Source: a virus (taxonomy: Duplodnaviria; Heunggongvirae; Uroviricota; Caudoviricetes). From it: a stretch of 64,000 nucleotides of DNA. Under the pieces are notes generated by a model. The model saw nothing but the letters and a program-made list of their open reading frames with translations. It had not been told where the DNA came from and made no database searches. Location: IMG/VR virus record IMGVR_UViG_2639762884_000001; one strand, written 5' to 3'. Every line of letters begins with the position of its first letter. The stretch's first letter is position 1. Made by a program: the position numbers and the translations under genes. Shown piece after piece: positions 21,704-24,741 of this stretch.

Positions 21704-22957
21704 GTGGAGAACACCTCCACGCTTGATTCATTGGTGAAACAACTTTTCTTTTGCCAAACCACAAAAGAAAAACACATGAGCCTTTATGTTATATCAACAT
21801 TTAGGTTGGTCACAATATTGCCTGTTAAAAGTGGAATTATCGTGAGCGAGCTGAAAGAGCTAATTACCGAATTAGATTTTGAACAATGGTTGGACACTGA
21901 AGGTATCGTTTATCGACGTGGAGGCGTGAGTGCTCGCGGTCGTGAAGTGAATATCAAGGAGTGTCCGGTATGCGGCAGCTCCAACTGGAAGGTATATTTC
22001 AATCTGACCAGTGGCGTCGGCAAATGCTTCGCTGGTGATCATCCCGAAGAGATTCAGTTCAATAAGCTGGTCTTCCTCAAGCACTACAGCGGTAAATCAC
22101 GACGACAGTTCGAGGAATATGTGCAGAACGCTCTTCTTTCCCAGGGGTGGGCACCAAAGAAAGAAGAGATAGTGCTTACAAGCACAGTCGAGTTAGAGGG
22201 ACCACTTGCACTCCCTCGTCATTACGAACTTCCTATAGATGGCCGTCTTCCAGACTATCTGGTTGAACGAAACATATCGCCTGAAATGGCAAAGTATTTT
22301 GACCTACGATACTGCGTCGAAGGCAAGCACGCTTATGTAGATCCGTATACAGATCAGGTAAAAGGACAGATATTCGATATGCGAGTACTGATACCGGTTT
22401 ACGATCTGGATGGGGTAATGAAGACATTTCAGGGACGAGACATTACCGGTACAGCAGACCGCCGCTACCTCTTTCCTATGCAGCTTCCAGCTTCAGGTAA
22501 GTTTCTCTACAACGGCCATAATGCAGTTGGCAAACAGACTGTAGTTGTCTGTGAGGGGGCGTTCGATGTTATGGGAGTTAAACGAGCTATTTTTGACGAA
22601 GAAACATTACGTGATTACGTGGAACCAATAGGAACGTTCGGGATGCATCTATCTGGCAACACCACTCAGGATGCAGAAGATCAGCTGGGCGCGTTCCTGA
22701 CGCTCAAGGCGCGTGGATTACGTAATGTGATCATGATGTGGGATAGTGAAAAGCAAGCTATACGCAACACTATGGCCGCAGCCAGGCGACTCACAAGTAT
22801 TGGTCTTAATGTCAAAGTTGCGTGTTTGGGCGAGGAAGGACTCGACCCCGGCGATGCGACACCGGGGCAGATTATCAAAGCCTACTATTGCGCAAAACCT
22901 TATTCACGACAGCTTGAACTCTTAAGCAAGGTGAAAGGCATTGCAGCACTAGTTTGA
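21704..22957 (+). CDS. DNA primase (zinc-ribbon plus TOPRIM-like)
   Basis: CPVCGSSNWKVYFNLTSGVGKCFAGDH zinc-binding motif near N-terminus; follows the helicase; true start probably 21776 (MSLYV) after the conserved aaaagaaaaacacATG initiation region. Confidence 0.6.
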   Translation: MENTSTLDSLVKQLFFCQTTKEKHMSLYVISTFRLVTILPVKSGIIVSELKELITELDFEQWLDTEGIVYRRGGVSARGREVNIKECPVCGSSNWKVYFNLTSGVGKCFAGDHPEEIQFNKLVFLKHYSGKSRRQFEEYVQNALLSQGWAPKKEEIVLTSTVELEGPLALPRHYELPIDGRLPDYLVERNISPEMAKYFDLRYCVEGKHAYVDPYTDQVKGQIFDMRVLIPVYDLDGVMKTFQGRDITGTADRRYLFPMQLPASGKFLYNGHNAVGKQTVVVCEGAFDVMGVKRAIFDEETLRDYVEPIGTFGMHLSGNTTQDAEDQLGAFLTLKARGLRNVIMMWDSEKQAIRNTMAAARRLTSIGLNVKVACLGEEGLDPGDATPGQIIKAYYCAKPYSRQLELLSKVKGIAALV

Positions 22958-24139
22958 ACCAGTATTAGTCACATACACATTGACCGAAAATGATTTAACT
23001 TCTGTATTGAAGTTGTCAGTCATTACCGCGAGGTAGGCATTCTTGGTATCTCTGAATTGCTTCAGGATGATTTGAACGTTATCGGTGCAAACAAACGAGG
23101 TAGCCAGATTGCCTCCTTTCTCTGAAAAATCCTTCAGGAAGGTGCAGTCAACTTTGCCATCATTAGCGGTGAAGGTAGCATCATCACCCTGCCAGGTAAA
23201 TGTAGCGTTAACGCCCTTATCAATGGATTTAGCAATAAGTCGCTGGGTGGCGGATTTTGTTTTGGCTTTGGAAGCCGGCGCTCGATATTTGCCGCTTTCT
23301 TTCAGTTCTGCAATGTAATCGCAGCCTCTTTTTTCTCCTTTATCGCAAGCAGTCTGATAAAGGTCGGCTGCTTTTTTATAGTCCTTTTTTACACCTTCCC
23401 CATTCTCATACATAATGCCAAGATTGGTTATGGCGTCGGCGTTTCCAAGTTCCGCTGCCTTTTTATACCACTTAACTGCTTCTGCATCATTGCGTTTAAC
23501 GCCTAACCCATCATCGTATAGTATTCCTAATCCTATCATAGCTTCTGAACTGCCTTGGTCTGCCGCCTTTTTGTAATAAGTAAAAGCCTTTTTATAATTC
23601 TTTTTAACGCCTTTACCATATTGGTAATACGCCCCAAGAACTGAAGTTGCTTTAACATACCCGGCATCAGAGGCTAGTTTGAAGTATTTAATGGCGAGTG
23701 CATGATCTACTTTACCAAGCATCCCCTTTTGATAAATAGCACCAAGATTGTTGTAGGCTCTACCTTCACGAGCATCCCCCGCAAGTTTGTAGTACTCAAC
23801 AGCTTTATTTAGGTCTTTATCTACACCCTCGCCAAATGTGTACATAACTCCAAGTGCATAATATGCTACTTTATCTCCCTTTTCTGCAGCTAGATCAATC
23901 CACTTCTTGGCCTCAACTACATCCTTATCAAAACCATTGACACCATCAAAATAATTTGTACCTAACTCACTTTGTGCTGCGGTATCCCCTGCGGTAGCGG
24001 CTTCTATCAGCGTTTGTTTATTGTCTGCGTTAACGAATCCAGAGTTAAAAAGCAAAGTTAATGCCAGCAACGATGAAGATTTTATGTATTTCATGTTTTT
24101 TTTTCTGTTGATATAGGATGAACAGTTTAGACGCGGCAA
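22949..24139 (-). CDS. Secreted Sel1-like repeat (TPR-like) protein
   Basis: Signal peptide MKYIKSSSLLALTLLFNSGFVNA; about 7 repeats with the Sel1 signature (A..YYxLGxMYxxGxGVxKDxxKAxxWYKKAA); opposite strand to neighbours. Confidence 0.7.
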   Translation of the reverse strand: MPRLNCSSYINRKKNMKYIKSSSLLALTLLFNSGFVNADNKQTLIEAATAGDTAAQSELGTNYFDGVNGFDKDVVEAKKWIDLAAEKGDKVAYYALGVMYTFGEGVDKDLNKAVEYYKLAGDAREGRAYNNLGAIYQKGMLGKVDHALAIKYFKLASDAGYVKATSVLGAYYQYGKGVKKNYKKAFTYYKKAADQGSSEAMIGLGILYDDGLGVKRNDAEAVKWYKKAAELGNADAITNLGIMYENGEGVKKDYKKAADLYQTACDKGEKRGCDYIAELKESGKYRAPASKAKTKSATQRLIAKSIDKGVNATFTWQGDDATFTANDGKVDCTFLKDFSEKGGNLATSFVCTDNVQIILKQFRDTKNAYLAVMTDNFNTEVKSFSVNVYVTNTGSN

Positions 24140-24327
24140 GCGTCAAGTGTGCGAAAAAGGGTACTTAAATTTAGTTAATATGTCAGCTTTGTTGATTTAG
24201 TTTAAGGTCGGTAAAGTTACTGGGAAACTAATAACCATAAGAAATAGTACGCCATTTAATTATTGTGGCACTGCTCGTGTTTTGATTAACTAATACCTGC
24301 GATAAATATAAATAAAGGGAAGCCAAC

Positions 24328-24741
24328 ATGAGCAAAAATAAGCTGATTTTAACAGGAGCTTTATTGTCTTTGTTTGCTTTAGTGGGGTGTAAGCCTACAG
24401 ACGAGAAGGCTATTGCTCTGGGCCAACAAGCAATTGCGGATGATATGAAAGATCCCACGTCGGTGATGTTTAGGAAAGATAAGTTTGTCAGGACTGATCA
24501 TGACGATGGGAGTGTGACAGGCTTTGTGTGCGGAGAATTGAACGCCAAAAATGGCTTTGGTGCATACGTGGGCTATCACTCATATGTTGTTGAACTCGAA
24601 ATGAAACCAAAGGGCATGTTTTCGAAAGGGGTGGTATACAAAATCCTATCGAAGTCGTTGGCACCTAATGATCCTCATGACTTACAGCGTTATAAGCAGG
24701 TCTACAGAAAGATGTGCAACAGTGAGGCTGTAGCTCATTAA
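24328..24741 (+). CDS. Lipoprotein
   Basis: Signal peptide with lipobox LVGC (MSKNKLILTGALLSLFALVGC); 137 aa. Confidence 0.6.
   Translation: MSKNKLILTGALLSLFALVGCKPTDEKAIALGQQAIADDMKDPTSVMFRKDKFVRTDHDDGSVTGFVCGELNAKNGFGAYVGYHSYVVELEMKPKGMFSKGVVYKILSKSLAPNDPHDLQRYKQVYRKMCNSEAVAH

Follow-up and report, generated by a model that had tools for sequence, protein, structure and literature searches.

What do a gene for a secreted Sel1-repeat protein and a gene for a small lipoprotein do in the replication region of a phage-plasmid, and do they belong together? The question is raised by a 64,000-nucleotide stretch of viral DNA from the IMG/VR record IMGVR_UViG_2639762884_000001 (hereafter the window, meaning the whole stretch), in which these two divergent genes follow a DNA primase gene. 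The region shows 96-99% DNA identity to Escherichia phage Cyrano, to phage CMS-2020a and to more than 200 pECOH89/SSU5-type plasmids of Escherichia coli, which identifies the window as an SSU5-like E. coli phage-plasmid. We are highly confident that the two genes are independent, dispensable cargo encoding envelope proteins and lodged in a hot spot; the fuller statement, in which this moron-type cargo also serves an envelope function that includes the exclusion of other phages, is put forward tentatively, as a reading that falls a little short of being probable.

The two genes lie in a variable segment of about 1.86 kb (1863 bp, 22943..24805) between the primase gene and a phrog_4248 gene, where it replaces approximately 29 bp of the relatives in which the slot is empty. 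When compared by blastn with Cyrano, pSCU-306-2 and Esc22, which all have the empty slot, homology ends at about 22903-22942 and restarts at 24806, and with SSU5 it restarts at 24802. At least six alternative contents were found at this primase/phrog_4248 junction among relatives. Besides being empty, the slot can hold an unrelated 321-aa minus-strand gene, SSU5_041, in SSU5 itself (its right boundary corresponding to window position 24802); IS5 fragments with a sulfatase/maturase pair in p1919D62-2, where the last 30 bp or so of the Sel1 gene are retained; a 345-aa Sel1 allele without the lipoprotein in pRM13322; the lipoprotein gene alone, at about 60% identity, co-oriented with the primase gene and some 30 bp past it, in Cronobacter-type phage-plasmids; or an IS26-truncated Sel1 gene with the lipoprotein gene on a 161-kb plasmid of strain MEW. 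The slot directly 3' of the primase gene is thus, as judged from these alignments, a recombination hot spot with differing cargo in relatives, and we found no description of it or of its contents in the literature searched. We considered whether SSU5_041 could be a diverged Sel1 allele, and rejected this: it has no similarity to the Sel1 protein, looks cytoplasmic and matches no Pfam family.

The distribution of the two genes was surveyed in 5426 complete E. coli genomes, counting those with at least 80% coverage. The primase gene is present in 248 of them (about 4.6%), so that SSU5-like phage-plasmids, which have been studied mainly as carriers of resistance genes, are common in this species. 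The lipoprotein gene is found in 56 genomes, the C-terminal domain of the Sel1 protein in 58 and the whole segment in 51, in every case on plasmids and never on the chromosome, the carriers being gut, clinical and livestock isolates. Only about 23% of the related E. coli phage-plasmids, as defined by the same primase, therefore carry these genes, and this presence/absence check bears out the proposal of the initial annotation that they are cargo. Cyrano, which has neither gene, makes virions (PMC9928086). Because the genes are absent from some 77% of relatives and Cyrano makes virions without them, both are dispensable, and the element can replicate, persist as a plasmid and form virions without either; the initial annotation, too, saw no obvious role for them in replication or virion formation. 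The opposite reading, in which both products are late-expressed components of the virion or of lysis, is extremely improbable: homologues of the lipoprotein do lie inside the tail operons of other phages, but terminators stand between those homologues and the tape-measure gene, the signal peptide and the lipobox direct the two products to the host envelope, and SSU5 is, with Cyrano, among the relatives that lack the genes.

The segment has several traits of a moron in the sense of Juhala and Hendrix, as summarised in PMC3594210. It is present here and absent from collinear relatives, the Sel1 gene lies on the opposite strand, and the base composition of the insert (41.4% GC) deviates from that of the window (45.9%) and of the primase gene (48.1%), the GC content at third codon positions (GC3) of the Sel1 gene being 37%; this difference between the insert and its surroundings is a modest one. 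As a kind of feature, morons carried in a hot spot of a phage are well known, and like the accessory-gene hot spots of other phage-plasmids and temperate phages, this one combines a single junction, conserved flanks and alternative cargo, a pattern shared by other opposite-strand, low-GC genes of the window; the two protein families themselves are uncharacterised.

Do the two genes form a functional pair? The initial annotation described them as a divergent pair that had been inserted together and was driven by one divergent promoter region. Taken further, this could mean a two-component envelope module, in which the lipoprotein would provide the membrane anchor for a periplasmic partner, the Sel1 protein, both being expressed from a shared promoter region. 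The genes are indeed adjacent and divergent, both encode predicted envelope proteins, the intergenic region between them is AT-rich with conserved blocks, and at least 51 E. coli genomes carry both against 56 and 58 that carry each. However, the comparison with relatives does not support a pair: the lipoprotein gene occurs alone in the Cronobacter phage-plasmids, a Sel1 allele occurs alone in pRM13322, and elsewhere the homologues of the Sel1 protein are not accompanied by such a lipoprotein gene. Conversely, a Sel1 gene stands beside a lipoprotein homologue at none of 67 other viral loci, nor, at 80 genomic loci of lipoprotein homologues, is a Sel1 protein encoded by any of the 121 immediately neighbouring ORFs that could be scored (100 aa or longer). 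A module is on these grounds very improbable. The distribution identifies the genes as two independent units stacked in one slot, and in E. coli they are usually inherited together for the plain reason that this lineage acquired both.

The intergenic region (24095..24327, 34% GC) also argues for separate units. An alignment of the window allele with the NZ_CP195468 allele resolves it into two separate conserved blocks, one 5' of each gene, around a variable middle, and no consensus promoter was found. With laxer settings, the scan returned candidates of no more than 8/12, every one of them on the minus strand; for the Sel1 gene, the best of these weak sites is TCAACA-16-TAAATT at 24195-24168. 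The block of about 95 nt directly 5' of the Sel1 start (24095-24190) is almost identical between alleles whose coding parts share about 83% identity, which suggests a conserved regulatory element or 5' untranslated region (UTR); no Rfam family matched this block or the rest of the region at E<=0.1. Just past the lipoprotein stop lies a stable, GC-rich plus-strand hairpin, GCCGGGC-N9-GCCCGGC (24750..24772, -19.7 kcal/mol, z=-3.4), which has no U-tract and was not called by the terminator scan; it could serve to stabilise the RNA or to terminate transcription weakly. In the Cronobacter elements, the co-oriented lipoprotein gene is probably transcribed along with the replication module. In Cyrano, the replication genes that flank the slot are not among the lysogen-expressed genes (PMC9928086).

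The lipoprotein gene (24328..24741, plus strand) is present in the ORF list exactly as first annotated, encodes 137 aa, matches phrog_2320 (E=2e-39) and is preceded by the Shine-Dalgarno-like sequence AAGGGAAG. Its product begins MSKNKLILTGALLSLFALVGC, with lysines at positions 3 and 5, a hydrophobic core and the lipobox L18-V19-G20-C21 (nt 24379-24390), so that the LVGC lipobox already recognised in the initial annotation agrees with the pattern [LVI][ASTVI][GAS]C of signal peptidase II (SPase II) substrates. The lipobox is conserved across homologues, 95 of the 150 top-ranking family representatives having a lipobox-like motif, and in the PDB the family profile is aligned with the signal peptides of lipoproteins. 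In E. coli, lipoproteins without Asp at position +2 are passed by the Lol pathway to the outer membrane, and because the residue at +2 is here Lys, the protein is predicted to be anchored at the periplasmic face of the outer membrane.

An exhaustive HMMER search (E<=1e-3) gathered 1346 cluster representatives of this family, mostly 110-140 aa long, which in a collection of one genome per species span the alpha-, beta- and gamma-Proteobacteria. They share the motif LKDPxSAxF ... G.VCGEVNAKNSFGAYxGF and a second conserved Cys near the C-terminus. The family has a Cys pair that is conserved and a CG-x-VNAKN-x-FGAY hairpin that is invariant, and fusions with SPOR, SH3 or PG_binding_1 domains occur among the homologues. 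The AlphaFold2 (AF2) model of the window protein (predicted local distance difference test, pLDDT, 89.9) is an alpha+beta fold of cystatin/NTF2-like type, with the N-terminal helix lying on a curved antiparallel sheet. The protein has no match in Pfam, NCBIfam or PADLOC, its seven PHROG matches are all labelled as of unknown function, a Foldseek search against the PDB gave nothing significant, and a fold search of BFVD returned uncharacterised phage proteins only.

What then might this lipoprotein do? The genomic context of its homologues is suggestive in this regard. At least 516 IMG/VR loci carry relatives, of which the best 80 were sampled, 67 of them not on phage-plasmids. In 51 of these 67, the homologue lies immediately 5' of the tape-measure gene, past the major-tail and chaperone genes, and tape-measure PHROGs are also the commonest neighbour family in the one-genome-per-species sample. 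In the two lineages that were checked, strong intrinsic terminators stand between the homologue and the tape-measure gene, and one homologue also has a promoter-like site. In about 13 P2-like prophages among the loci examined, the homologue is instead found past ogr at the prophage end, and in SEN5 it sits next to int, between ogr and int; in phage Fraca, it lies between the tail genes K and I, beside a second lipoprotein. This second Fraca lipoprotein (in 3486-4181) is unrelated, 111 aa long, and begins MKKIILPIFIFLLMGC..., and in the deposited Fraca annotation the start of the family homologue is set too late, so that its signal peptide is missed.

The junction of chaperone and tape-measure genes is also where HK97 carries gene 15, the first moron described, whose product is a superinfection-exclusion protein and blocks genome entry with a specificity that maps to the tail (PMC3594210). 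On this basis, the lipoprotein may exclude incoming phages at the periplasmic delivery of their genome, by acting on the tape-measure protein or on the crossing of peptidoglycan and not by masking a receptor, since its homologues in unrelated siphophages are terminator-bounded morons at the gp15 position, 5' of the tape-measure gene, and since the family shows fusions to wall-binding domains, an inhibitor-type fold and a conservation too broad for a receptor-specific blocker. By analogy, we regard such an exclusion function as possible, with the balance leaning against it. The likeness to gp15 lies in the position of the homologues and in the nature of the products, small envelope proteins whose genes have their own terminator. 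It does not extend to the proteins: gp15 is a YebO-like, single-pass inner-membrane protein and not a lipoprotein, and it has no sequence relationship to the present family, which matches no Pfam entry.

Exclusion by receptor blocking, as proposed in the initial annotation and as known from T5 Llp and from Cor of phi80 and N15, which block FhuA, is not favoured. These too are small phage lipoproteins of the envelope that are linked to tail genes. They are roughly 60-80 aa long, unlike the 137-aa window protein, which in sequence searches matches no annotated exclusion PHROG; the strong conservation of its family across three classes of Proteobacteria points away from a blocker of the Llp/Cor type.

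Another reading is that the lipoprotein would inhibit or regulate a peptidoglycan hydrolase (a lysozyme, lytic transglycosylase or endolysin) in the periplasm, and thereby modulate lysis or protect the wall, apart from any exclusion. We consider this quite improbable. Pfam includes the lysozyme-inhibitor families Ivy, MliC/PliC, PliI and PliG, but neither these nor any other Pfam family is hit by the lipoprotein (E<=0.01) or by any of 40 family members (E<=0.1); the fold match is moreover generic, NTF2/VirB8-like domains scoring equally, and the gene lies outside lysis cassettes in every context examined.

Several points weigh against exclusion at the delivery step. No sequence similarity links either protein to a characterised exclusion protein in PHROG, PADLOC, Pfam or NCBIfam. 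The window gene itself adjoins the primase gene and not a tape-measure gene, so that the argument from position is taken over from homologues at 30-50% identity, and a small number of related prophage lineages make up most of the best 80 IMG/VR loci. A place beside the tape-measure gene may be no more than a permissive insertion site, and conservation across Proteobacteria could equally reflect a housekeeping-type role in the envelope. Finally, the window shows no consensus promoter here, the scan of 24140-24327 having given no sigma-70-like site that scores 9/12.

The Sel1 gene raises the same question with different evidence. The ORF reported in the initial annotation, 22949..24139 on the minus strand with 396 aa from a TTG at 24139, is present in the ORF list, but its length is probably too great: because the phrog_8741 profile (E=4e-211) aligns only from residue 16 of that ORF and because the RefSeq protein WP_000874093.1 has 381 aa, the start is likely the ATG at 24094, which gives a gene at 22949..24094 (minus strand) of 381 codons plus stop and a protein beginning MKYIKSS. 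Residues 1-23 (24026..24094) read as a Sec signal peptide, as first annotated, with the n-region MKYIK, a hydrophobic core and the cleavage site VNA|DN, and the hydrophobic segment and the small-x-small site are kept in diverged alleles and homologues. A single-sequence AF2 model gives residues 1-21 a pLDDT below 50 and has its first helix from residue 23 onwards. Both products of the locus are accordingly predicted to be envelope proteins, in line with the initial annotation.

The mature protein opens with an alpha/alpha solenoid of seven Sel1 repeats (residues 23-267, 23294..24028), for which AF2 gives 14 helices in seven pairs with pLDDT above 90, as anticipated by the initial count of about seven; Pfam Sel1 (PF08238) recognises six significant repeats at 177.8 bits against a cut-off of 30.7 (E=1.5e-53), and the DNA of the region has a periodicity of 108 nt. 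It is followed by a domain of about 100 residues (approximately 281-381, 22952..23254) with two invariant Cys and 39 invariant columns among the E. coli, Pseudenterobacter, Pantoea and prophage homologues. This C-terminal domain matched nothing in Pfam, nor in the PDB by profile search, and AF2 models it with a pLDDT of only about 30. A word-indexed search with the domain alone returned three fragmentary clusters and nothing more; two of the three are remnants of truncated genes, located next to IS elements or within the cargo regions of prophages.

Alleles of 345, 381 and 417 aa, with six, seven and eight repeats respectively, show that the two parts have had different histories. The last 100 residues or so are almost identical between alleles, with dS of about 0.15 and dN/dS of 0.06-0.09, when the repeat region has an identity of about 50-75%, a saturated dS and a dN of 0.18-0.38. 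The conserved C-terminal domain next to a saturated repeat region indicates that the alleles are recombinational mosaics, with breakpoints near 23380-23425. On this basis, the Sel1 protein could be a periplasmic adaptor or inhibitor, whose constant C-terminal domain would dock on a conserved component of the envelope and whose variable solenoid would bind a variable protein ligand, for instance a phage or toxin protein.

Where the repeat part resembles proteins of solved structure, the resemblance is to generic Sel1 proteins: 6ok3, EsiB of E. coli (c5321, 4bwr) and HcpC of Helicobacter (1ouv). With these, the window protein shares Sec export, a solenoid of 36-residue helix pairs and strong profile matches; it differs from them by the additional, nearly invariant 100-aa C-terminal domain, by its location on a phage-plasmid and by the existence of repeat-number alleles. 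EsiB, LpnE and EnhC are Sel1 proteins that take part in interactions with host cells, and the Bor lipoprotein of lambda confers serum resistance, so that one or both genes might be lysogenic-conversion factors directed toward the animal host, acting in adhesion, immune evasion or resistance to serum or stress. EsiB is the second-best solved Sel1 match (E=9e-65), and the origin of the carriers in the gut, clinical samples and livestock would be in keeping with such a role. Yet the EsiB match is to the generic repeat, the Sel1 protein has a Sec signal only and no evident route to the cell surface, family members occur in plant-associated or environmental Pantoea, Paracoccus, Sphingobium and Pseudomonas, and the lipoprotein family, having no Pfam match, shows no similarity to Bor; a conversion factor is accordingly an improbable reading.

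Another possibility is that the Sel1 protein is an orphan immunity protein or inhibitor directed against toxins that act in the periplasm, such as effectors of type VI secretion systems (T6SS) or of contact-dependent inhibition (CDI), or colicins. Full-length homologues, at 46-55% identity, were found in Pseudenterobacter, in Pantoea and at the end of a lambdoid prophage, past the tail-fibre genes. The one in Pseudenterobacter (55% identity; P. timonensis, FCOP01000010.1, 5211-12894) lies between CdiA-type fragments (Fil_haemagg_2; PT-VENN with DUF6862 and a small ORF downstream) and a NERD-domain gene, with Fil_haemagg_2 and PT-VENN genes on either side, in what looks like an orphan CDI toxin/immunity island. 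The modular, swappable repeats would also suit a changing specificity, and the Pseudomonas Sel1-like chains 5jkp, 5jjo and 6lch, which we take to be phospholipase immunity proteins, are among the PDB matches. Chain 5jkp is Pa5087 according to Storey et al. (PMC7108748), who describe Sel1E of Klebsiella pneumoniae and PA5086-5088 of Pseudomonas aeruginosa as Sel1 solenoids that neutralise a protein toxin, the localisation of Sel1E being uncertain according to its authors. The solenoid, which presumably binds the toxin in those proteins, is what the window protein has in common with them. However, its gene has no adjacent cognate effector, the neighbours being the primase, lipoprotein and phrog_4248 genes; the similarity is again that of generic repeats (E of about 1e-11, when an unrelated Sel1 protein reaches 8e-90); none of the known immunity proteins compared has an equivalent of the C-terminal domain; and a single distant homologue lies in a CDI island when other Sel1 homologues are found in unrelated contexts. 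Immunity of this kind is therefore rather improbable as well.

Two further searches concern the Sel1 protein. PADLOC reported a 40-residue TPR-like match to PtuA, which we rejected as a sign of membership in a defence system, as it has no significant stretch and as we regard it as spurious for a secreted protein; and the literature searched contained no report of Sel1 proteins linked to SSU5-type phage-plasmids or to exclusion.

We thus return to the two proteins as separate agents in the envelope of the carrier cell, where the lipoprotein may act on genome delivery and the Sel1 protein may act as an adaptor or inhibitor. The most far-reaching form of this reading, in which the lipoprotein would represent a very widespread, un-named class of periplasmic exclusion proteins of Proteobacteria, tied to the tape-measure gene because it would intercept genome delivery at the tape-measure or wall-crossing step, and the Sel1 protein a second, modular guard in the same hot spot, built of a constant docking domain and a specificity module of Sel1 repeats exchanged by recombination, is unlikely. 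If the lipoprotein family did exclude phages at the tape-measure step, hundreds of prophage genes beside tape-measure genes would gain an annotation, and a new handle would be available on how the DNA of siphophages crosses the periplasm; if neither gene affects infection, the locus is a routine example of moron turnover. The slot shows small envelope cargo being shuffled in SSU5-like phage-plasmids and points to two families that are unnamed in databases.

How the cargo is joined to its surroundings can be followed at both edges. The genes around the slot are ordered DnaB-like helicase, primase, Sel1 and lipoprotein, phrog_4248, phrog_5055 (both of unknown function) and ATP-dependent ligase; the initial annotation was right to place the insertion just past the primase gene, but its right-hand neighbour is the phrog_4248 gene, two genes before the ligase gene. 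The primase gene (21842..22957, plus strand; Pfam DNAG_N/Toprim_2, phrog_47) more likely encodes 371 aa, as in the RefSeq annotation. Its TGA stop at 22955-22957 and the Sel1 stop, the complement of 22949-22951, fall within a 9-nt overlap (22949-22957), the two genes being convergent and on opposite strands as first described. The primase ends in GIAALV in the window and in GIKALS in Cyrano and other empty-slot relatives, and this difference of the last codons between occupied and empty slots (22930-22957) places the boundary of the insert inside the primase 3' end. The Sel1 gene runs into this primase end in antisense. On the right, a conserved junction (24806..24866, plus strand) 5' of the phrog_4248 gene is common to all slot states, as blastn matches with SSU5, Cyrano and the loci of Cronobacter type show. 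The direct repeat ACTATTGCGC (10 nt, at 22884 and 24788) was considered as a target-site duplication and rejected, as its occurrence is close to chance expectation in 2.3 kb and as the primase 3' end, which lies between the two copies, is homologous to that of relatives. No inverted repeats or IS ends were found at the edges of the segment.

Other parts of the window also vary among relatives or stand out from their surroundings. A second variable slot lies 5' of the phrog_2500 gene, where the window has a 357-aa minus-strand gene (18222-19295; phrog_22329, unknown function) and relatives have a GIY-YIG protein or other ORFs instead. At 41078-42058 (minus strand), a 326-aa gene of about 38% GC with a DUF4365 domain (E=2e-16) and a PADLOC match to Aga_REase-PNTD (2e-10) is wedged between the genes of a DNA polymerase III alpha-like protein (37384-40902) and a gp32-like single-stranded DNA-binding protein (SSB; 42736-43764), and is probably a further cargo or defence insert. 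A 406-aa minus-strand ORF of about 32% GC, without Pfam or PADLOC match, is found at 29830-31050, just past four tRNA genes (Asn-Tyr-Thr-Ser, 29087-29644). A plus-strand ORF of 58/59 aa (27497-27676) overlaps the ligase stop, is named 'after-plasmid-ligase protein AplA' in the RefSeq annotation of a relative, and has counterparts in some relatives and not in others. Lastly, genes for a CobT-like VWA protein (702 aa) and an AAA_5 ATPase (411 aa) occupy 33764-37203 on the plus strand, 3' of an integrase-family gene (31717-32820).

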